This document shows positions 2,721-62,384 of a stretch of DNA of 64,000 nt, piece after piece. The notes below the pieces were generated by a model. It saw only the letters and a program-made list of their open reading frames with translations. It ran no database searches and had not been told where the DNA came from. The stretch comes from Candidatus Wolfebacteria bacterium GW2011_GWA1_44_24. GTDB taxonomy: Bacteria; Patescibacteriota; Minisyncoccia; UBA6257; UBA9933. Location of the stretch: positions 300,710-364,709 of the forward strand of contig LCIO01000001.1 in assembly GCA_001001115.1 (NCBI GenBank). The letters run 5' to 3'. Numbering within the stretch: position 1 is the stretch's first letter; each line of letters begins with the position of its first letter. Made by a program: the position numbers and the translations under genes.

Positions 2721-3314
2721 TTAGTAGCCACTCTCGTAAATGTGGAAAATTTGGGCTTCGCCTTCGGGATGGACATAGACGGTGAATTCTTGATTTACCG
2801 TCCAGATGCCGTGAACAGCAGTCGGCTTTTCTATAGCCACCCTTACCAGGTGCTCGCCGACGCCCAAATGAAGGTCAGATGTCGCGCCGTACGGTTCAAG
2901 GATAATTGGCTGCTTGCCTTTATCAATCCAGATTCTTACCTTTCGGTAAGAATCGTTTTTGAAGATTACCAGCGACGGGTCGTCAAACGACGAATCGTAA
3001 ACGGTCTGGTAATCTGCTAAAGGCGGCGGGCCCGGCAACGGCATTGTTCCTGGCGACAGGGCCGGCGGTTTTGCCCGGTAATCGTATTTGTACACGATTA
3101 CCTGCGGCGCTTGCCCGCCGTAATTTCCCCATTCGTCGAAACCGAGAACCGGAATTTTCCAAACAGTGATTCCGGCGCCGGTTTCCGCGTGGACTGGTTC
3201 TTTGGCGGTTTGCCGTAAACCGGCGCAACCGGACATCATCAGGAGCGTCATCAGCAACAATAAACCCGTTAGGAACAACATTAACTTTGCAGGGGCATCG
3301 AATTCGATCTTCAT
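2721..3314 (-). CDS. Predicted lipoprotein, unknown function
   Basis: Start moved to the ATG at 3314, which is preceded by gaaggaggtg. Signal peptide with lipobox LLMMSGC. No family recognised. Confidence 0.6.
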   Translation of the reverse strand: MKIEFDAPAKLMLFLTGLLLLMTLLMMSGCAGLRQTAKEPVHAETGAGITVWKIPVLGFDEWGNYGGQAPQVIVYKYDYRAKPPALSPGTMPLPGPPPLADYQTVYDSSFDDPSLVIFKNDSYRKVRIWIDKGKQPIILEPYGATSDLHLGVGEHLVRVAIEKPTAVHGIWTVNQEFTVYVHPEGEAQIFHIYESGY

Positions 3315-4142: not shown

Positions 4143-4472
4143 GTGTTAGCCAAAAAATTTCGTTTGCCAATTCAGAATTGGTTTAAAGAAAAGAAGGGGG
4201 CGATTGTTCGCAAAAGCGATTTTTTTGCCGTAAAGACAAGGGAAAGCAATTTGCCTTTCAGCCGCTACGGCGTTGTTGTCAGCCGGAAAGTTTCCGGATT
4301 TGCGGTTCGGCGCAACAAAATCAAAAGAATAATTTTTAATTTTATCCGGCTGGAAAAACTTCAAGAGACTTCAGGCAGAGACGTTTTAATAATTGTTTCG
4401 CCTTTGGCCTCTAAATTAACAAAACAAAAAATCGAAACCGAACTGAAATCGTTGCTAACCGCTAATCGCTAA
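4143..4472 (+). CDS. rnpA: RNase P protein component
   Basis: 109-aa basic protein in the conserved rpmH-rnpA-yidC-jag order. GTG start. Confidence 0.8.
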   Translation: MLAKKFRLPIQNWFKEKKGAIVRKSDFFAVKTRESNLPFSRYGVVVSRKVSGFAVRRNKIKRIIFNFIRLEKLQETSGRDVLIIVSPLASKLTKQKIETELKSLLTANR

Positions 4473-50753: not shown

Positions 50754-51728
50754 TTGAATATGTCAAAAGTTTTCATTACGCGAAAAATTCCGGAAGCTGG
50801 CGCAAAATTATTAAAAGAGAAGGGTTGCGAAGTCGATATCAGCGCTAAAGACGGGGTTTTGACCAAAGAAGAATTGATGTTCGCGCTTCGCGGCAAAAAA
50901 TACGATGCCGTGCTTTGCCTTTTAACCGATAAAATCGACGGAGATGTTTTTGAATCCGCCGGGTCGCAGTGTAAAATTTTTGCAAATTTTGCCGTTGGTT
51001 TTGACAATATTGATTTGGCGACTGCCAAAGAAAAAGGAATATTGATAACGAATACGCCGGGGGTGCTGACGGAAACCGTGGCAGAACATACTTTTGCCTT
51101 AGTGCTGGCCATAGCTCATCGAATCGCCGAATCCGACCGTTTTACCCGTAACGGGAAATATGTGGGTTGGCAGCCGATGCTTTTTTTGGGGACAGACGTT
51201 TCCAGAAAAACGTTGGGAATTGTCGGTTTGGGGAGAATCGGTTCGCGGGTGGCTTATCACGCGGGCAAGGGATTCGAAATGAAGATTTTATATTATGACC
51301 CGAAGCCTAATCCGGCTTTTGAAAAAGAATTCGGAGCGCGATTCGTTGATTTAGAAACTCTTCTTAAGGAATCTGATTTTATTTCCATTCACGTGCCGCT
51401 CTTGCCGGAGACCCGCCATTTAATCGGAGAAAATCAATTAAAAATGATGAAAAAAAACGCTTATCTGATAAATACTTCCCGCGGCCCGATTATAGACGAA
51501 AAAGCTTTGGTTCAAGCGCTGAAAGAAAATTGGATTCGCGGCGCGGCTTTGGATGTTTATGAAAACGAGCCGGCTTTAGCGCCCGGTTTGGCGGAATTGG
51601 ACAACGTTATTTTAACTTCCCATATTGCTTCGGCCACCGAAGAAACGCGGGCAAAAATGTCCGAATTGGCGGCAACGAATATCATTGAAGCGCTTGAAGG
51701 CAGAATGCCGCCGAATTTGGTCAAATAA
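50754..51728 (+). CDS. D-isomer-specific 2-hydroxyacid dehydrogenase (glyoxylate/hydroxypyruvate reductase-like)
   Basis: NAD motif GIVGLGRIGSRVA and a catalytic region LTSHIAS. Confidence 0.85.
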   Translation: MNMSKVFITRKIPEAGAKLLKEKGCEVDISAKDGVLTKEELMFALRGKKYDAVLCLLTDKIDGDVFESAGSQCKIFANFAVGFDNIDLATAKEKGILITNTPGVLTETVAEHTFALVLAIAHRIAESDRFTRNGKYVGWQPMLFLGTDVSRKTLGIVGLGRIGSRVAYHAGKGFEMKILYYDPKPNPAFEKEFGARFVDLETLLKESDFISIHVPLLPETRHLIGENQLKMMKKNAYLINTSRGPIIDEKALVQALKENWIRGAALDVYENEPALAPGLAELDNVILTSHIASATEETRAKMSELAATNIIEALEGRMPPNLVK

Positions 51729-51729
51729 C

Positions 51730-52104
51730 ATGGTTTTTATCTACATCTTTAATCGTTTTCTTTATCGCATTAAGGAATTTTTCCGTCATTGGTACGTTAA
51801 AAGTTTTTTTATTTACACCCATTTCGTTATTTCTTTGCTGGAAAAAATTGACCGTTATTTCGCTTTCAAAATAACTTTGCGCCATCTTTTTGTCCCCCTG
51901 TATCTTGACAGGAGCGTTATCGGTTATATCTTGGGCTTTATTTTCAGGCTGGGAAGGTTGATTTTTGGAGGGACGGTTTATTTGTTGATTATTCCGGCGG
52001 CCGTATTTTTTTATCTTGTTTGGCTGGGAATACCGTTTTATGTCGGCTATCGGATAATTTTTGATTATGTTGGACTTGGACCTCAAAAATTTATCTTTTT
52101 CTGA
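51730..52104 (+). CDS. Small membrane protein (hypothetical)
   Basis: Start set at the ATG at 51730. Two or three hydrophobic helices. Overlaps the start of the Clp-family gene. Confidence 0.4.
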   Translation: MVFIYIFNRFLYRIKEFFRHWYVKSFFIYTHFVISLLEKIDRYFAFKITLRHLFVPLYLDRSVIGYILGFIFRLGRLIFGGTVYLLIIPAAVFFYLVWLGIPFYVGYRIIFDYVGLGPQKFIFF

Positions 52105-54619
52105 GCCGCGGCTTCAATTTAGCGCTGTTTCGCGTTTTTTGATACGGCTGGTTTGTTATTCTTTTTACGCGGTTTTGGCGGTTTCAGCCGTCACTTTTCT
52201 GCTTTCCGATATCGAGCGGCTTTTTTGGTCGGGAATTTTAATTTCTCTTTTTTTAGCCGATCGTTTGAGACATCGCGGCGAGGCCGAAAGGTCAACCGTT
52301 GAATTATTGCGGCATTTGCCGAGATTAAACCGCCGCAAGGAAAATATTTTCAGCGCCGAAATCCGCAACACCGCTTATTATCTGATGCCATCAAGTCTTT
52401 CCGTGTTGGAAAGAGCCCAGGATAAAACCTTGATTCTCGGCGGAGATTTTTATCTCTATCTGGTGAAATTTTTAATTCAATTGCCAGAAGTAAAAAAGGG
52501 ATTATTGCGGATGGATGTCCAAATAGACGATTTTGGGCAAAAAATTGAAGAGTTTATCGAGTCCGGAGAAAACAGAAAAATAAAAATTTCCAAGGAAGAT
52601 TGTTTGAAAAATATAGAAATAATCGTCAAGTCGGCTTTTTTGTCGGCCCTCGACTCGAAAAATTCTTTTATCGAACCGGTTAATTTATTTGCGGCGTTTG
52701 AAAACGCCGGTAGCCTGATCGTTAACAGGCTTTTTAATATATTCGATATCAATCCGGCTGATTTGGAATACGCCATTATTTTCAGCCGTTATGGAAGTTT
52801 TTGGAGCCGATTGCCGAAAACTCTCGGCGGATTTATTTCTCAACCGCGCCGATTAAGGCATCGGGTGATGAATCGCGCCTGGACTAGCCGTCCAACGCCG
52901 ACACTCGACGCTTTTGGCGTTGATTACACCGATTTGGCGCGTTCAAGAGAAATCGGTTTTTTAATCGGTCATCAGCAGGAATATGATCGGTTGGTTGATG
53001 TTTTGTCGCGGCCAACCAAACCTAACGCTTTGCTGGTCGGCGAACCGGGCAGCGGCAAAGAAGCTGTTGTCAAGTCATTGGCTTTCGCCCTGATTAAAGA
53101 CGAAGTGCCGGAAGCGATTTTTGACAAACGTCTGGTGTCTTTGGAAATCGGCCGTTTGGTTTCCGGCGCGAAAACCGAAGAAATTTCGAGCCGTTTGAAT
53201 AAAATTGTTGAAGAAATAATTATCAGCGACAATGTCATTCTTTATATTCCCGATATCCATAATCTGGCTAAAACTTCCAGTGAAGGAGTGATGAGCGCGG
53301 CTGATATTCTGATGCCGATTGTCAGCAATGACGCTTTTCCGCTTATCGGTGCCGCTTATTCGAGGGAGTTTAAGCAATTTATCGAGCCGTTAAGCGATTT
53401 TTCAAATGCTTTTGAAATCATCCGAATTGAAGAAATTTCCGAAGCTGAAGCCGTAAAAATATTGACTTACGAGAGTTTAATTTTGGAAAAGCAATATAAA
53501 CTGACCATTAGTTTCGGCGCCATAAAACAAGCGGCGTTATTGGCTCATAAATATTTCCGGCAGAAATTATTGCCCTCAAGCGCCGAGGACTTGCTCAAAG
53601 AATCATTGGCTTACGCGAGTCAGCGCGGAGACAAACTGCTTCAAGCAGATGATGTTATTGCGGTGGCGGAGAGGAAAATCAACGTGCCGCTTCACGCGCC
53701 GGGAAAAGGAGAGGCGGAGAAATTGCTCAATCTTGAGGATTCAATCCATCAATTTTTAATAGACCAGGAAACGGCGGTTTCGGCAGTAGCTCGGGCTTTA
53801 AGGGAATATCGCAGCGGTTTGTCCCGTAAGGGAGGGCCGATCGCCGCGTTTTTGTTCGTGGGGCCGACCGGCGTCGGCAAGACCGAATTGTCAAAAATTC
53901 TAGCGAAAATCCAGTTCGGCTCCGAAGCCGCGATGGTTCGTTTTGATATGTCCGAATATCAAACTCGGGAAAGCATTTCAAGATTTATCGGCTCAAGCGA
54001 CGCTCAAATCGCCGGCGCTCTAACAGAAGCGATTATTCAAAAGCCTTATAGTTTGATTTTGCTTGATGAGTTTGAAAAAGCCCATCCGGATATTTTGAAT
54101 TTGTTTTTGCAGGTTTTTGACGACGGCCGCTTGACCGACAGTTTGAACAGAACGGTTGATTTCACCAATACAATTATCATCGCCACCTCCAATGCCCATT
54201 CCAATTTCATTAAAGAACAAATTGAAGCCGGAGAGAAAATCGAAAAAATCGGGGAAGAATTAAAGAAAAAACTCACCGAATATTTTAAGCCGGAGTTGCT
54301 GAACCGCTTTTCCCAGATTGTGGTTTTCAAAAATCTTTCAGCAGTCGACATTGAAGCCATCGCGCGACTCCAATTAAAATCTTTGGCAAAAATTCTTGAA
54401 GAAACAAATGGCATCGGCTTGGATTTTGACGAAGCAACGGTAAAAAAAATCGCGGAACTCGGCTATGATCCGGTTTTCGGCGCCCGGCCTTTGCGCGGCG
54501 TGATTTCGGAAAAATTGAGGAGTCCTTTGGCGGAAAAAATTTTAAGAAGAGAAATTGTCAAAGGCAACAGCGTCAGAATTGTTTTGGAAGACGAGGGGAT
54601 AAAGTTTATAGTCGGTTGA
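52061..54619 (+). CDS. Clp/Hsp100-family double AAA+ ATPase with an N-terminal membrane segment
   Basis: D1 has GEPGSGKE and ILYIPDIH, both atypical. D2 has GPTGVGKTE and LILLDEFEKAH. N-terminal hydrophobic helices. Confidence 0.8.
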   Translation: MIMLDLDLKNLSFSEPRLQFSAVSRFLIRLVCYSFYAVLAVSAVTFLLSDIERLFWSGILISLFLADRLRHRGEAERSTVELLRHLPRLNRRKENIFSAEIRNTAYYLMPSSLSVLERAQDKTLILGGDFYLYLVKFLIQLPEVKKGLLRMDVQIDDFGQKIEEFIESGENRKIKISKEDCLKNIEIIVKSAFLSALDSKNSFIEPVNLFAAFENAGSLIVNRLFNIFDINPADLEYAIIFSRYGSFWSRLPKTLGGFISQPRRLRHRVMNRAWTSRPTPTLDAFGVDYTDLARSREIGFLIGHQQEYDRLVDVLSRPTKPNALLVGEPGSGKEAVVKSLAFALIKDEVPEAIFDKRLVSLEIGRLVSGAKTEEISSRLNKIVEEIIISDNVILYIPDIHNLAKTSSEGVMSAADILMPIVSNDAFPLIGAAYSREFKQFIEPLSDFSNAFEIIRIEEISEAEAVKILTYESLILEKQYKLTISFGAIKQAALLAHKYFRQKLLPSSAEDLLKESLAYASQRGDKLLQADDVIAVAERKINVPLHAPGKGEAEKLLNLEDSIHQFLIDQETAVSAVARALREYRSGLSRKGGPIAAFLFVGPTGVGKTELSKILAKIQFGSEAAMVRFDMSEYQTRESISRFIGSSDAQIAGALTEAIIQKPYSLILLDEFEKAHPDILNLFLQVFDDGRLTDSLNRTVDFTNTIIIATSNAHSNFIKEQIEAGEKIEKIGEELKKKLTEYFKPELLNRFSQIVVFKNLSAVDIEAIARLQLKSLAKILEETNGIGLDFDEATVKKIAELGYDPVFGARPLRGVISEKLRSPLAEKILRREIVKGNSVRIVLEDEGIKFIVG

Positions 54620-57927: not shown

Positions 57928-58430
57928 TTCTTGGTGATTTGTGTTATTAATCCTCTTCCGCCGAATCGCGGCTCCATGGTGATTTTACATTCCGTAGGAA
58001 TCATTTTTAAAAATTCGTTTAATTTTTGGAAAGCCCATGTTCGGTTGTATTTTTCTCGTCCCCTCAAAGTCAGCATAATTTCCACTTTATTGCCCTCGGC
58101 TAAAAATTCCTCTATTTTTCTGACCTTGGTTTCTAAGTCATTTTTGGCTTCCCGGGCGCTTATCTGAACTTGCTTTAATTCGCTTATCTTCTGCGACGCT
58201 TTTTGTTTCTTTAATTCTTTTTCTCTCTGGTAGCGGAATTTGTCAAAACTGATTATTTTGGCGACTGGCGGCTTAGCGGTCGGCACGACCTCAATCAAGT
58301 CCAATGTTTTATCCTGCGCCAATTTTAATGCCGCCTCAAGCGGCATAATCCCCAGATTCTTTCCTTCCTCGTCCAACACTCTCAGTTCGGGTGATTTTAT
58401 TTGATTGTTTATTTTATATTGCTGAATAAT
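57924..58430 (-). CDS. infC: Translation initiation factor IF-3, probable non-AUG (ATT) start
   Basis: NNQIKSPELRVLDEEGKNLGIM matches the IF-3 N-terminus. That region lies upstream of the track's GTG start and has only ATT/ATA/ATC codons. The exact start is uncertain. Confidence 0.8.
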   Translation of the reverse strand: MIQQYKINNQIKSPELRVLDEEGKNLGIMPLEAALKLAQDKTLDLIEVVPTAKPPVAKIISFDKFRYQREKELKKQKASQKISELKQVQISAREAKNDLETKVRKIEEFLAEGNKVEIMLTLRGREKYNRTWAFQKLNEFLKMIPTECKITMEPRFGGRGLITQITKK

Positions 58431-58443
58431 ATCTTTGATTTAG

Positions 58444-58755
58444 TGGAAGCGAGCGGAATTGAACCGCTGTCCAAAGATTATCGGAAAAAATTTCTACAGG
58501 CTTATCCGCCTTTGGCGGAGATTTTTGCTCCTTATTTGTCTCCGGATATCGGAGCGTTTTTCCAGAGTTTGCCCAATTATTACACCGGTTGTCCCTTATT
58601 AGGCGTCAGGGGCCGATGGCTTCGGCGATTTATGCAAACGCCGGAGCAAAAGCCAAATTTTTGTTGGCAGTTATTTTGTTTTGATTGGATTAATGAGACA
58701 ATCGGCTCAGCCTGCGGTTTTATCGGAAAAATCTTTGTCGAAGCCTAGCGCTCCC
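58444..58755 (-). ncRNA. ssrA: tmRNA (ssrA)
   Basis: 5' GGGAGCG pairs with 3' CGCUUCC-A, including a G3:U wobble. T-arm AGCGG-UUCAAUU-CCGCU. Tag frame GCC AAC AAA AAU UUG GCU UUU GCU CCG GCG UUU GCA UAA encodes ANKNLAFAPAFA (58668..58630). CCA is not encoded. Confidence 0.85.
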
Positions 58756-59182
58756 GTTGTATTTCCCTTCCAATTTCTCTTTTTCTGATCAATTCTCTTT
58801 TGTCTGCTTTTTTTCGGCTTTTTCCCAAACAGATTTCTATCTTTATTTTCGAGTTTTTAGTATAAATCTTTAAAGGCATCAAAGTCAAGCCTTTTTCATG
58901 GATGCGGCCAATAAGGTTTTTAATTTCCGATTTTTTGAGAAGCAGTCGGCGGTTTCGTTTTGAATTATAATCAAGCGGCGCGTTTTTTGGCTGATAGGGC
59001 GGAATATCGGCGTTTATCAGCCAAGCTTCGTTGTTTCGGATAATGGCATAAGAACCGACAAGATTTATTCTTCCGGATTTTATGGACTTAACTTCAAACC
59101 CTTTCAATTCCAAGCCCGCTTCATAAGTTTCAAGGATTTCGTAGTCGAATCTCGCTTTTTTATTTTCCGCGATTATTGGCAT
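58745..59182 (-). CDS. smpB: SsrA-binding protein SmpB
   Basis: NKKARFDYEILETYEAGLELKGFEVKS. Confidence 0.9.
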   Translation of the reverse strand: MPIIAENKKARFDYEILETYEAGLELKGFEVKSIKSGRINLVGSYAIIRNNEAWLINADIPPYQPKNAPLDYNSKRNRRLLLKKSEIKNLIGRIHEKGLTLMPLKIYTKNSKIKIEICLGKSRKKADKRELIRKREIGREIQRER

Positions 59183-59217
59183 AAATTAAGTATAACTTAT
59201 CCAGAAATTTTAGAAAT

Positions 59218-59242
59218 AAAAAAGGGGCGTTAGTTTCGCCCC
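59218..59242 (-). terminator. Rho-independent terminator of the peptidase gene
   Basis: On the minus strand: ggggcg-aaactaa-cgcccc followed by tttttt. Confidence 0.6.
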
Positions 59243-59258
59243 TATGGAATAAGATGAT

Positions 59259-59837
59259 TTATGTACTACCCAAAAGCCTCCAGAAATCTCCCATTTCTCG
59301 ATCTTGTCTCAGGCATTTTATAAGCCTTGTGTCCAAATAAAAATGGAGGGAGTTTTGTATTTTTTTTATCCATTCCGAATATTCTTCCTTCTTATCATAG
59401 ACGTCCCTTCCAAGATCCAAAAAATGAATCCGCATATCTCTCAAATTAGCAACACTATTGCCAAGACTGGCAAAAAGCATTGTTATGGCAAAGACATCGC
59501 AAAGGAGTTCCCTCATATAGCCGCAATAGGGCACATAGAGGGGTTGTCTTAGCAGCACAAAATGATGTCCTAATTCATGAAATGTCAAGAAATCCAACCA
59601 CATTTGACAATTCGAAACTGGGAGGATCACGACCCTCTTGCAGGGGGGTTTTTCTCCCCTCTCGCTTAATCTTAAATAAGCTGTCGTCTCTTTCTGCTTA
59701 AAATCTGTTATTATCTGAATGTTGCAAATTTCGCAAAGGTTTTTGGCCGACCTTCCTTTAAATTCATCATAAATGTCCAAAAGAACTTTTAAGATTTTCT
59801 TTCTGTGGTGTATTCTTTCGTCAAATATCGTTGCCAT
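59259..59837 (-). CDS. HExxH zinc metallopeptidase, ImmA/IrrE (M78)-like
   Basis: FHELGHHFVLL motif. 192 aa with several Cys. The family call is from the motif only. Confidence 0.5.
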   Translation of the reverse strand: MATIFDERIHHRKKILKVLLDIYDEFKGRSAKNLCEICNIQIITDFKQKETTAYLRLSERGEKPPCKRVVILPVSNCQMWLDFLTFHELGHHFVLLRQPLYVPYCGYMRELLCDVFAITMLFASLGNSVANLRDMRIHFLDLGRDVYDKKEEYSEWIKKIQNSLHFYLDTRLIKCLRQDREMGDFWRLLGST

Positions 59838-59847
59838 TTTTCTTTTT

Positions 59848-59914
59848 CTCCCTATTAAGTTTTAATTTTAATCTTTTTAAATTATAATAAAGTTAAATGA
59901 TTAAATCAAGAATT
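59848..59914. repeat. 67-bp direct repeat, copy 1 (decayed copy of the argS promoter and first codons)
   Basis: 63/67 identical to 60731-60797. Contains tataat and atgattaaatcaag, which reads MIKSRIIF-stop. Confidence 0.85.
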
Positions 59915-60016
59915 ATATTTTAAGTATCAAGCATTAAGCATTATAAAAATAAAAAAGGCCTACTCAACATATAAATGTTTTTCGGCCATATTTTTTTAGG
60001 ATTTTCCCCAAGATTT

Positions 60017-60415
60017 TTATTTTTTTCTCGGATTTTTTCCGTTTTTTTCTGACCTTCCATCACAATCGGGACATGTTTCGTTTTTGAGATATTTATTTCT
60101 CGTAGGCGCAGCGCACATTTTACACCGCACTGCAAGCTCATTTATGAGTAAGGCTACGTCATCGACGCAGGGATCGCCTCCAAAGCGAGATTCTGCATAC
60201 TTGGAGAAAGGGCGATACTGAAAAAGCATTCGCGCTTCTTCTTTTGTCATGGGTTGTATTACAACGCCGACTCCTCCCTTTATTTCGTAAAATTTAACCA
60301 CCTTTTCTTCCTCGTATCGTTGTCTGGCATAGTCGATCAATCCTTTGTCAACTGAAAAAAGTTTTATGTGTTTTGGGTCAATAGCTGGGTTCATCTTGCC
60401 GCATTCTTCGCACAT
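60017..60415 (-). CDS. Hypothetical protein with N- and C-terminal zinc ribbons
   Basis: MCEECG... and CKMC...CPDC. SD aaggaggg upstream. Confidence 0.45.
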   Translation of the reverse strand: MCEECGKMNPAIDPKHIKLFSVDKGLIDYARQRYEEEKVVKFYEIKGGVGVVIQPMTKEEARMLFQYRPFSKYAESRFGGDPCVDDVALLINELAVRCKMCAAPTRNKYLKNETCPDCDGRSEKNGKNPRKK

Positions 60416-60502
60416 TTTTCCCTCCTTATTTGATAATTCTTTTTGATGTATTCGTAAAGAATGCCGTCTTTTTTTCTGGAGATTTTTACTAACCCCCTTC
60501 TT

Positions 60503-60721
60503 TCACAGTAAGAGAAGAAATCCTGTATTTTGTATTCTAAGCTCCTTTCTTAATTTCTTAAAGAAGAATTCATTAAGCCCGACTGGTTTTGAAAAACGAG
60601 ATAAGGTTGTTAAAAGCAATTCCCGTGTCCTTATCACGTTTTTTATAAAACCCTTTGGGGGACCAAAAACATCATAATAAACGTGAGCGATTTCCTTATT
60701 AGTAAGATTTTTCTCTCTCAT
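60503..60721 (-). CDS. Small hypothetical protein, possibly a disrupted winged-helix regulator
   Basis: SD aaggagggg upstream. Ends at a TGA, but both the 0 frame and the +1 frame stay open to 60415. Confidence 0.4.
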   Translation of the reverse strand: MREKNLTNKEIAHVYYDVFGPPKGFIKNVIRTRELLLTTLSRFSKPVGLNEFFFKKLRKELRIQNTGFLLLL

Positions 60722-60730
60722 TATCTACCC

Positions 60731-60797
60731 CTCCTTATTAAGTTTTAATTTCAATCTTTTTAAATTATAATAAAGTTAAATGATTAAGTCAATAATT
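60731..60797. repeat. 67-bp direct repeat, copy 2 (functional argS promoter and start)
   Basis: See copy 1; offset 883 bp. tataat at 60766-60771 and the ATG at 60780. Confidence 0.85.
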
Positions 60798-62384
60798 GAA
60801 AATTATCTTAAAAAAGCGATTAAAGAGAATATTGAGATAGAAGTTTTTGTTTCAGAAGGGGAGCAATTCGGACATTATTCGACGAATGTCGCTTTGAAAT
60901 TGGCGAAAATCAAAAAAGAAAATCCGATGGAAATTGCCGTAAAAATCGCGTCAGATGTCAGACATCGGATGTCAGATGTTTTTAATAAAGTAGAAGTCGC
61001 GCCGCCGGGTTTTATAAATTTTTGGCTCAAGCCGGAAGTTTTTCAAAACGAATTAAAAGAAGTTTTAAAGAAAAAAGAGAAGTACGGCAAATCGCAAATT
61101 GCAAAGCGTAAAGCGTGTAAAATTCAAATTGAATTTATTTCGGCTAATCCCACTGGTCCCTTGACTCTTGCCAATGGCAGGGGAGGTTTTTTAGGTGATG
61201 CTTTAGCTAATATTTTAGAATTTTGCGGATATAAAATTGAGCGGGAATATTATGTAAACGACACCGGCAATCAGATTTTAACGCTGGGAAAATCAATCTT
61301 GGCGGCCGGCGGATCCGTTCCATTCGAAGAAAAATTTTATAAAGGAGAGTATGTAAAAAAATGGGCAAAGAAAAATTCAGCGATAGTGAAAAAATACAAA
61401 GATAATCCATTAAAAGTGGGGAAATTGGCGGCTAAAGATTTTTTGACCGGAATTAAAAAAGTTCTTCAAAAAGAGGCAAAAATTAGTTTTGACCGCTGGA
61501 CTTCGGAAAATAAACACATTCACAAAAGAAGTTATATCAAAAAAACGCTGAATATCTTTAAAAAATCCGGTTTGGTTTATGAAAAAGACGGCGCTGTTTG
61601 GCTTAAAACTACGAAATTCGGAGATGATAAAGACCGCGTCCTGATTACCGGCGATAATTTTCCGACTTATTTTTTGGCCGATTCCGGCCATTATTTGGAA
61701 ACCAAAGAGCGGGGTTTTAGCGGGAAAATTGCTATTTGGGGACCGGACCATTTTGGCTATATCAGGCGCATTCAAACGGCGGCGGAAATTATGGGTTTTG
61801 AAAATTCCGAAATTATCATTACTCAGGCAGTTCGGTTGATGAGTCAAGGCAAGGAAGTTAAAATGTCCAAAAGGACCGGCGAATTTGTGACTTTTGAAGA
61901 ATTGATTAAAAAAGTCGGCGTTGACGCGACGCGGTTTTTCTTTTTAATGCATTCGCCGGATTCTCATATGGATTTTAACCTTGATTTGGCAAAAGAAAGG
62001 TCTTTGAAAAATCCGGTCTATTATGTTCAATACGCGGCAGTAAGATGTCAAAGTATTTTAAAAAAATCAAAAATCAAAGGCCAAAAACCAAAGGCTAAAT
62101 ATAATTTATTAAATACGCCGGAAGATATAAATTTAATTAGATTACTGGCGCGGTTTTCGGAAGTTGTTGAAGAAGCCGCTGGAAAATTAAACCCGCAGAT
62201 TTTGGCGCGTTATTCTTTGGATTTGGCGCGGCAGTTTCATAATTTTTATGAGAAAGAGCGAATAATCGGCGAAAATATTGATAAAAATTTATCATTGGCG
62301 CGTTTGGAACTGATAAAAGCTGTCCAGGCAGCTTTTAAAAATTTATTCGGACTTTTGGGTATTTCTATGCCGAAGAAGATGTAG
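60780..62384 (+). CDS. argS: Arginyl-tRNA synthetase
   Basis: SANPTGPL, KMSKRTG, and a C-terminal DALR-type anticodon-binding region. 534 aa. Confidence 0.9.
   Translation: MIKSIIENYLKKAIKENIEIEVFVSEGEQFGHYSTNVALKLAKIKKENPMEIAVKIASDVRHRMSDVFNKVEVAPPGFINFWLKPEVFQNELKEVLKKKEKYGKSQIAKRKACKIQIEFISANPTGPLTLANGRGGFLGDALANILEFCGYKIEREYYVNDTGNQILTLGKSILAAGGSVPFEEKFYKGEYVKKWAKKNSAIVKKYKDNPLKVGKLAAKDFLTGIKKVLQKEAKISFDRWTSENKHIHKRSYIKKTLNIFKKSGLVYEKDGAVWLKTTKFGDDKDRVLITGDNFPTYFLADSGHYLETKERGFSGKIAIWGPDHFGYIRRIQTAAEIMGFENSEIIITQAVRLMSQGKEVKMSKRTGEFVTFEELIKKVGVDATRFFFLMHSPDSHMDFNLDLAKERSLKNPVYYVQYAAVRCQSILKKSKIKGQKPKAKYNLLNTPEDINLIRLLARFSEVVEEAAGKLNPQILARYSLDLARQFHNFYEKERIIGENIDKNLSLARLELIKAVQAAFKNLFGLLGISMPKKM
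60950..60977 (+). repeat. Heptamer-periodic tract, GTCAGAT family (gtcagat gtcagac atcggat gtcagat, then gttttta)
   Basis: Read directly. In frame inside argS, encoding SDVRHRMSDVF. Also contains the nested palindromes gatgtc-a-gacatc-g-gatgtc. Confidence 0.8.
62062..62096 (+). repeat. Heptamer-periodic tract (aaaaatc aaaaatc aaaggcc aaaaacc aaaggct)
   Basis: Read directly. In frame inside argS, encoding KSKIKGQKPKAK. Confidence 0.7.

Follow-up and report, generated by a model that had tools for sequence, protein, structure and literature searches.

How did a copy of the predicted promoter and first codons of argS come to stand upstream of the intact gene, with small genes enclosed between the two copies? 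The question is raised by a 64,000-nucleotide (nt) stretch of DNA from an uncultured groundwater bacterium, Candidatus Wolfebacteria bacterium GW2011_GWA1_44_24 (GenBank assembly GCA_001001115.1, contig LCIO01000001.1, positions 300,710 to 364,709; henceforth called the window), in which a first-pass annotation had noticed a 67-nt direct repeat (59848–59914 and 60731–60797) and had proposed an integration or recombination at the 5' end of argS, analogous to islands that rebuild the 3' end of a tRNA gene. The repeat is henceforth called R, and its left and right copies R_L and R_R. The two copies are probably the best-preserved remains of a direct duplication spanning the whole slot between smpB and argS and not the ends of a mobile insert, and R_L is best read as giving accessory genes a second ready-made expression slot.

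The repeat pair upstream of argS

The features of the locus follow one another in the order transfer-messenger RNA (tmRNA) gene, smpB, an open reading frame (ORF) of 192 amino acids (aa), R_L, ORFs of 132 and 72 aa, and R_R, all genes lying on the minus strand, before argS begins on the plus strand. A repeat search returned the pair as first described, with 63 of 67 positions identical (94%) and a start-to-start spacing of 883 nt in the window, and comparison of the copies placed the mismatches at 59852, 59869, 59905 and 59910, exactly where they had been given; a core of 35 nt (59870–59904) is perfectly identical. The right copy holds a TATAAT (60766–60771) and the argS start at 60780 (ATG ATT AAG TCA ATA ATT), and the left copy holds the counterpart of the hexamer at 59883–59888 and a dead stub of eight codons (ATG ATT AAA TCA AGA ATT ATA TTT TAA). 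On the other strand, each copy supplies a Shine–Dalgarno sequence (SD; GGAG/GGAGG) before a minus-strand start codon, at 59837 and 60721, respectively. All of these elements had been read correctly in the first-pass annotation. Local alignment ended at the limit of the 67-nt block, and no homology of the left copy to argS was found past nt 18 of the gene.

A 50-nt core pattern of R, searched with up to three mismatches, matched only R_L and R_R in the 64 kb and nothing in 100 shuffles (0.00 expected), and a 23-nt core pattern likewise found just these two sites in the window and none in the shuffled sequences. No further copies were detected in the window by blastn-short, and the core had no match in viral contigs. 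A metagenome scan returned only two contigs, one of this strain and one of a sister strain, from a collection that lacks some R-bearing JGI contigs and therefore gives limited power. Both copies, together with their differences, are present in >20 independently assembled contigs of the same population (NCBI, JGI, ENA, Logan).

The smpB–argS gap in related genomes

Eleven loci from other species were retrieved with ArgS as bait (loci and contigs are referred to by L numbers). In nine of them (L019, L021–L028), smpB is divergent from argS, and the upstream block PolX–NUDIX–L20–L35–IF3 is mostly kept as well in eight relatives. The gap between the two genes measures 22–183 nt in L022, L024 and L028, with the minimum of 22 nt between the start codons in L022 (5979–6000) and about 100–180 nt in L024 and L028; in the other relatives it spans 0.5–1.7 kb and is filled with unrelated small genes. 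Relatives of the three proteins encoded in the gap of the window, henceforth called p192, p132 and p133, were not found in L019–L029 by tblastn, nor was a local repeat of the argS start found upstream of the gene in L019–L027. Judged from these gene orders, the smpB–argS gap is a hotspot for accessory genes in Candidatus Wolfebacteria and allies. The first-pass annotation had predicted an empty arrangement with the peptidase gene (p192) directly divergent from argS, and this prediction did not hold: since the relatives lack p192, it is non-ancestral cargo too, and the ancestral empty site is thus smpB next to argS, not the peptidase gene next to argS.

In the cargo-free locus L022, the -10 hexamers of the two genes overlap (AGTATAAT) and the -35 hexamer of smpB lies inside argS codons 3–5; by this layout, both essential genes must be leaderless there.

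A different arrangement occupies the gap in L019 and L021, where a protein of 190–197 aa (…VRWDxLWRVxIFDIPE…) is bracketed by direct copies, 725–747 nt apart, of a near-perfect palindrome of 40–54 nt (AATTxCGGTTATTxCAxCGATCGxTGxAATAACCGxAATT; 4358–4411 and 5105–5158 in L019, 4473–4512 and 5198–5237 in L021) that is unrelated to R. These palindromes could be operators or bidirectional terminators.

A predicted leftward expression module within R

All promoter and terminator calls reported here are consensus matches. On the minus strand, R_R holds TTGACT-17-TATAAT (60792..60764; 11 of 12 consensus positions) and R_L holds TTGATT-17-TATAAT (59909..59881; 10 of 12). The limits of R follow this promoter closely, as one end lies 5 nt past the -35 box and the other starts at the leftward gene's SD. 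R hence appears to be one complete predicted leftward promoter and ribosome-binding module, consisting of -35, -10, untranslated region (UTR) and SD. The -35 hexamer is the reverse complement of argS codons 3–5, and the argS codons would be copied within R because the leftward -35 box sits inside them. The -10 hexamers on opposite strands overlap (ATTATAAT, at 60764–60771 and 59881–59888); the minus-strand hexamer was called by the promoter scan, and the plus-strand TATAAT was read off the sequence.

The same geometry recurs beyond the window. In cargo-free L022, a leftward TTTACT-17-TATACT with its -35 inside argS is predicted to drive smpB, the ATG of which follows 7 nt after the -10; the single-slot locus L025 has a leftward TTGACT-16-TATACT, and both R copies of the sister strain have TTGACT-16/17-TATAAT. 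The placement of the -35 box inside argS therefore appears to be ancestral.

The sister strain and the head-to-tail junction

A sister strain from the same aquifer (L030–L032, L035), with smpB 77.5% and infC 75.7% identical to the window strain, carries the same structure with different contents; the structure is carried by these two strains only. Its order is smpB, terminator, a 66-aa gene, R_L with the stub, terminator, a 147-aa homologue of p133 (71% identity), R_R and argS. The 66-aa gene thus stands where the window has p192, the stub junction is the same with one synonymous stub difference, and an intact p132 is missing, about 12 codons of a p132-like start being left as read from the sequence. 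The spacing of the repeats is 667 nt in the sister strain, 883 nt in the window and 954 nt in sibling contigs of the window population.

In an alignment of seven sequences (A2), the junctions of both strains align with the smpB side of five genomes, beginning at the 'AT' of the smpB CAT. The junction reads ATATTTTAAGTATCAAGC, compared with CATATTTTAAGTATAAGC on the smpB side of L025, or, when segmented, AATT-AT-ATTTTAAGTATCAAGC compared with CAT-ATTTTAAGTATAAGC. Base pair 59914/59915 is accordingly the junction at which nt 18 of argS is fused to nt 2 of smpB (the 'AT' of the start codon), and the DNA to the right of the stub (59915 to ~59990) appears, from this alignment, to be a paralogue of the host's own smpB-proximal promoter/terminator segment. 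Given this homology, the stub marks a novel head-to-tail junction, such as a direct duplication of the slot or the joining of two alleles in tandem would leave, and not the edge of a foreign element. Local alignments against shuffles further showed that the smpB side of the window matches the junction side of the sister strain (z = 18.6, 57 columns, ~84% identity) and that the junction side of the window matches the smpB side of the sister strain (z = 9.6).

The four R copies of the two strains are 91–98.5% identical, compared with a background of 76–78% in smpB and infC, and the first 200 nt of argS are 95–98% identical. The high identity of R and argS is a sign of purifying selection, of gene conversion or of recent homologous exchange; for the R copies themselves, their closeness relative to the strain background points to constraint or gene conversion acting on both copies. 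Only one mismatch is common to both strains, namely that at 59910, where the left copies have G and the right copies T, the three others being private to the left copy of the window, and this shared difference fits one founding event before the strains split. Because the same junction occurs with different cargo in a strain diverged by ~23% in smpB and infC, the duplicated structure appears to be old and fixed and not a recent integration.

Two further observations were made on the sister contigs. In L030 (4340–5942), argS is called as two ORFs (339 and 197 aa), owing to a frameshift or an assembly error, and in L031 an ORF with a GIY-YIG domain (3099–3242) lies beyond infC, where the window has rpmI.

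Proposed origin of the duplicated slot

The following course of events, the order and recombination mechanism of which we infer from the comparisons above, would account for the locus. Ancestrally, smpB and argS would have been divergent and leaderless and would have shared a tiny promoter with -10 boxes overlapping on opposite strands, the leftward -35 lying within argS codons 3–5. In an older step, still represented by the existing single-slot relatives, accessory genes would have come between the two: smpB would have retained a -10 and leaderless start (segment a), followed by a terminator (segment T), and the argS-proximal copy would have retained the full leftward promoter, driving the cargo by way of a 5' UTR with a strong SD at its end. 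In the common ancestor with the sister strain, the region from the smpB start codon to nt 18 of argS would then have been duplicated head to tail by illegitimate recombination, either through unequal exchange between chromosome copies or, equally, through the joining of two slot alleles after uptake of sibling-strain DNA. The product would read, from left to right, cargo 1 transcribed leftward from R_L, the stub, the junction, a2, T2, cargo 2 transcribed leftward from R_R, and argS transcribed rightward from R_R. Cargo turnover in both slots and small deletions (loss of p132 in the sister strain, 71 bp in the window) would have followed. R_L would have been kept nearly unchanged because it supplies its left-hand gene with a full module for leftward expression, and the argS codons in it would be passengers, since the -35 box lies inside them. 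Of what the first-pass annotation had proposed, the rearrangement at the 5' end of argS stands, with its duplicated promoter and six codons, its dead stub and the lineage-specific genes bracketed by the copies; the analogy to integrase-borne islands found no support.

Several observations weigh against a duplication of the slot. The copies are not homologous over their whole length, and only the frames are (R at 94%, a–T weakly); within the window, a1 and a2 are similar weakly (z = 4.1, a 19-nt stretch). The strong a–T similarity runs cross-wise between the strains instead, which requires recombination among the frames, and part of it could be due to functional constraints that the segments have in common (-10 box, A-tract and hairpin) and not to descent. 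With unrelated cargo in the two slots, a plain tandem duplication would not suffice: the cargo must have been replaced afterwards, or two different alleles must have merged, and neither step was observed. Nor was there any single-slot contig with p192 or p132/p133 beside argS (23 contigs were read for p192), so that the proposed parental alleles are hypothetical. Finally, the promoter scan detects neither a -35 for argS on the plus strand nor an smpB promoter within a1.

Alternative explanations

The locus could instead hold an integrative element, composed of a2, T2, p132, p133 and an attP mimicking the promoter and start of argS, which entered at an argS attB and left the stub as attL, its integrase acting in trans or having been lost. 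Direct repeats of the length of attachment (att) sites do bracket lineage-specific genes, one copy keeps argS intact while the other is a dead fragment, and the 35-nt identical core could act as the crossover region. Integrative islands and prophages insert into the 3' ends of tRNA and tmRNA genes and regenerate them, using att sites of tyrosine recombinases. We nevertheless regard such an element as highly improbable here. As the first-pass annotation had already remarked, the segment holds no integrase; no recombinase was found among the cargo proteins, which have no such PHROG, PADLOC, Pfam or NCBIfam match, or in the gene tables for ~10 kb on either side. The element would start with a copy of the host smpB promoter/terminator, which is unexpected for an autonomous element, and p192, outside the repeats, is equally non-ancestral. 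p133 was found only at this locus, and the relatives of p132 are solitary, in the contexts examined without argS-like repeats at their borders, and in no case viral. A search for an excised circle or an empty site, which had been suggested as a check, found neither in ~25 sibling contigs (17–24 read per bait: ArgS, p132, p192), and the sister strain has both copies, the same junction having persisted across ~23% divergence in smpB and infC. An assembly artefact, or a chance or convergent likeness of two AT-rich promoters, is scarcely credible. Short-k assemblies are indeed interrupted at the repeats (L008 and L045 begin within R, and contigs of GCA_000996445.1 end nearby), but the same two copies with the same four differences recur in contigs from various samples and assemblers, the diverged sister strain has both copies as well, no match to the core is expected from shuffles, and the identity runs through non-promoter positions into argS codons; the suspicion of an artefact, raised in the first-pass annotation, is thereby answered.

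A different history, in which cassettes were stacked, overlaps mostly with the duplication of the slot and differs from it only in the frequency and manner of exchange. Here, R and the a–T frames would serve as homology arms, and circular or linear copies of the slots of sibling strains would be inserted by RecA-type recombination in R, so that cassettes of the type terminator–cargo–R would be added, swapped and lost among strains in a promoter-bearing, integrase-free array; this we hold to be possible but unlikely. The frames are similar cross-wise (slot 1 of either strain resembles slot 2 of the other), the cargo differs between the strains in both slots, and the identity of 95–98% in R_R and the first 200 nt of argS against the background of 76–78% suggests recent homologous exchange. 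Yet two strains with one type of junction speak for a single founding event rather than repeated insertion, and neither a third slot nor a single-slot sibling was found. That Wolfebacteria possess an integrase-free cassette-exchange locus, with R as plug-in expression signal and homology arm, co-existing strains swapping cargo and gene conversion keeping R alike, is a speculation that we rate as quite improbable.

Two other types of element were considered and rejected. For a target-site duplication by a transposon or insertion sequence, neither a transposase match nor terminal inverted repeats were found, and a duplication of 67 nt is far longer than usual target-site duplications. For an integron, the gene tables hold no integrase within ~10 kb on each side, and there is no inverted repeat within or beside R, and so no attC-like palindrome.

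Cargo genes

The cargo of the two slots shows no similarity (p192 compared with p132 and p133). A word-based search with p192 returned only the protein itself, and a full phmmer search returned five remote relatives. The resulting six-member family has the invariant residues H87, E88, H91, E110, C113 and D114 (HELGH, followed by an E further downstream). No Pfam match was obtained for p192; of its relatives, P0054 scores 25.4 against Peptidase_M78 (PF06114; cutoff 22) and two others remain below the cutoff. On this basis, p192 can provisionally be described as a divergent metallopeptidase resembling ImmA/IrrE (Peptidase_M78).

For p132, 45 homologous clusters were collected, and their alignment (A1) has 19 invariant columns, including CxxC...CPDC. 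The conserved core (PMTxEEARxxFPYRPxSKYAESRFGGNxxxDDxALLLNxxAxRCxMCxAPTxxEYLxxGxCPDCDGRSExNGxxPR) is shared by a family of ~100-aa proteins (P0004–P0048). The relatives are encoded by solitary chromosomal genes in contexts resembling those of the Candidate Phyla Radiation (CPR), at least one context holding archaeal-type ribosomal genes, and in the contexts examined they are never bounded by argS-like repeats. No match to p132 was found in Pfam, NCBIfam, PDB sequences, Foldseek or viral contigs, and a PDB profile search gave just zinc-finger noise (E > 0.1). The AlphaFold model is poor (predicted local distance difference test, pLDDT, of 63.6), and the best Foldseek comparison with the PDB was not below E = 3.6.

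The family of p133 consists of three clusters only and was found just at this locus in the two strains. Neither p192, p132 and p133 nor the 66-aa protein of the sister strain has anything significant in Pfam, PHROGs, PADLOC or NCBIfam, and nothing in the sequences of the cargo proteins suggests mobility functions.

Sibling contigs and a 71-nt deletion in the window

Matches to the window were found in contigs of Candidatus Wolfebacteria bacterium GW2011_GWA2_42_10 and in sibling assemblies from groundwater. The window is 100% identical to the JGI contig Ga0209210_1000071 over 13 kb save for 71 nt that are missing at 60539/60540 (L001 9690–9760), are present in all ~25 sibling contigs, and share a microhomology of 4–5 nt, TCTA(A), at their ends. 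By this deletion, the 133-aa gene, which is intact in sibling contigs and overlaps the p132 gene there by 25 nt, is frameshifted into the 72-aa ORF. The small winged-helix-like gene reported in the first-pass annotation is therefore present as an ORF, while its product is the frameshifted front of a longer protein; as we read the sequence, the winged-helix-looking part (…DFFSYCERRGLVKISRKKDGILYEY…) would fall in the portion of p133 lost by the frameshift.

Contigs of GCA_000996445.1 stop within ~100 nt of 60539/60540, which hints at population heterogeneity at this site. Other indels of ~70–117 nt relative to sibling contigs were seen at 52066–52135 (against L003) and ~51226–51341 (against L002), in or near a ClpB-like gene (826 aa compared with 850 aa).

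Flanking core genes and frame segments

The coordinates of all features are given in Table 1. The smpB -10 (TATACT, the reverse complement of 59189–59194) lies 6 nt ahead of the smpB ATG, and the corresponding CAT-N5-6-AGTATA layout next to smpB is kept in relatives; from this spacing, a leaderless layout can be inferred. Within the same segment, an intrinsic terminator of the 192-aa gene was called at 59223–59243 (fold z = -2.6). In a2–T2, a -10 remnant (GATACT, the reverse complement of 59923–59928) and, beyond the 132-aa gene, a weak hairpin with T-run (59957–59987) correspond to these two elements. An extra minus-strand promoter-like site, TTGAGT-16-TATAAT (59940–59967; 10 of 12), lies in a2–T2 and is aimed at R_L and the 192-aa gene.

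The argS gene has no SD, and its ATG follows 7–8 nt after the plus-strand TATAAT; given this distance and the 22-nt intergenic region in L022, the argS mRNA is probably leaderless. At the gathering thresholds of Rfam, the tmRNA was the only RNA element detected, and neither a T-box nor another leader precedes argS. At its 5' end, the tmRNA gene shares 11 nt (58745–58755) with the end of smpB. A 115-aa ORF on the plus strand (58401–58748), which some JGI records list as a gene, lies wholly over the tmRNA gene and is almost certainly spurious.

Table 1. Features of the smpB–argS locus, with positions in the window.
Feature	Position	Strand	Description and basis
tmRNA gene	58441..58755	minus	Rfam RF00023, 136.5 bits; ARAGORN tag peptide ANKNLAFAPAFA; conserved neighbour of smpB
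smpB, left core gene of the slot	58745..59182	minus	Pfam SmpB, E = 4.6e-51
Frame segment a1–T1	59183..59258	minus	predicted smpB -10 box and terminator of the 192-aa gene
Slot-1 cargo p192, 192-aa HExxH protein	59259..59837	minus	accessory; absent from relatives
Left repeat copy R_L	59848..59914		SD GGGAG of the 192-aa gene, 5' UTR, symmetric -10 ATTATAAT, first 18 nt of argS
Dead argS stub MIKSRIIF*, 8 codons	59897..59923	plus	read from sequence; also in the sister strain
-35 TTGATT in R_L	59904–59909	minus	promoter scan
Frame segment a2–T2, apparent decayed paralogue of the smpB-proximal segment	59915..60016	minus	local alignments, seven-sequence alignment A2, fold
Slot-2 cargo p132, 132-aa Zn-ribbon protein	60017..60415	minus	uncharacterised family, conserved 75-aa core
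Slot-2 cargo p133, disrupted 133-aa gene	60391..60721	minus	listed ORF only 60503–60721 (72 aa)
Right repeat copy R_R	60731..60797		SD GGAGG of the 133-aa gene, 5' UTR, symmetric -10 ATTATAAT
-35 TTGACT in R_R	60787–60792	minus	inside argS codons 3–5; promoter scan
argS, right core gene of the slot	60780..62384	plus	Pfam Arg_tRNA_synt_N, tRNA-synt_1d, DALR_1

Implications and comparison with known systems

A shared 22-nt smpB/argS promoter could not be split without killing one of the two genes, so that each gain of cargo would bring a duplicated part of the promoter, and the duplicate would have to carry a dead argS start, the leftward -35 being inside argS codons 3–5. In this way, a genome with short intergenic regions and leaderless core genes can apparently still take in accessory genes. 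For the prediction of islands, the locus suggests caution, as direct repeats that rebuild a gene end can come from duplicated regulatory DNA of the host without the involvement of a mobile element. In addition, three small proteins that are still uncharacterised stand out as cargo varying between strains of CPR bacteria, namely the divergent ImmA/IrrE-like p192, p132 with its highly conserved Zn-ribbon core, and the rare p133. The finding opens no long-standing question.

With islands and prophages at the 3' ends of tRNA and tmRNA genes, the locus shares repeats around accessory DNA, one intact copy of the target and one partial copy; unlike in those islands, the 5' end of a protein gene is repeated together with its promoter, a copied host promoter forms the boundary of the insert, and the gene outside the repeats is accessory too. 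As in integron cassette arrays, small accessory genes are stacked at a fixed chromosomal site and separated by a repeat. Integron cassettes are mostly promoterless, whereas each unit here has its own predicted promoter; in addition, there is no IntI, and the units number only two. Tandem or segmental duplications by illegitimate (microhomology) recombination resemble the locus in their novel junction, direct adjacent copies and intact essential flanks, but here the cargo is unrelated and only the frames are still recognisably duplicated, unlike in a plain tandem duplication. Like accessory-gene islets between core genes, the locus combines conserved flanks (smpB, argS) with variable, unrelated content, and it differs from the usual islets in that the hotspot lies inside what would be a 22-nt shared leaderless promoter. 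Prokaryotic promoters that work in both directions through symmetric and overlapping -10 elements have been described ('Widespread divergent transcription from prokaryotic promoters', bioRxiv 10.1101/2020.01.31.928960; PMC12825309). Likewise, both ATTATAAT (R) and AGTATAAT (cargo-free L022) can be read as a -10 on either strand, with divergent genes alongside; unlike in the described cases, the whole predicted unit is duplicated here and its putative -35 is embedded in coding sequence.

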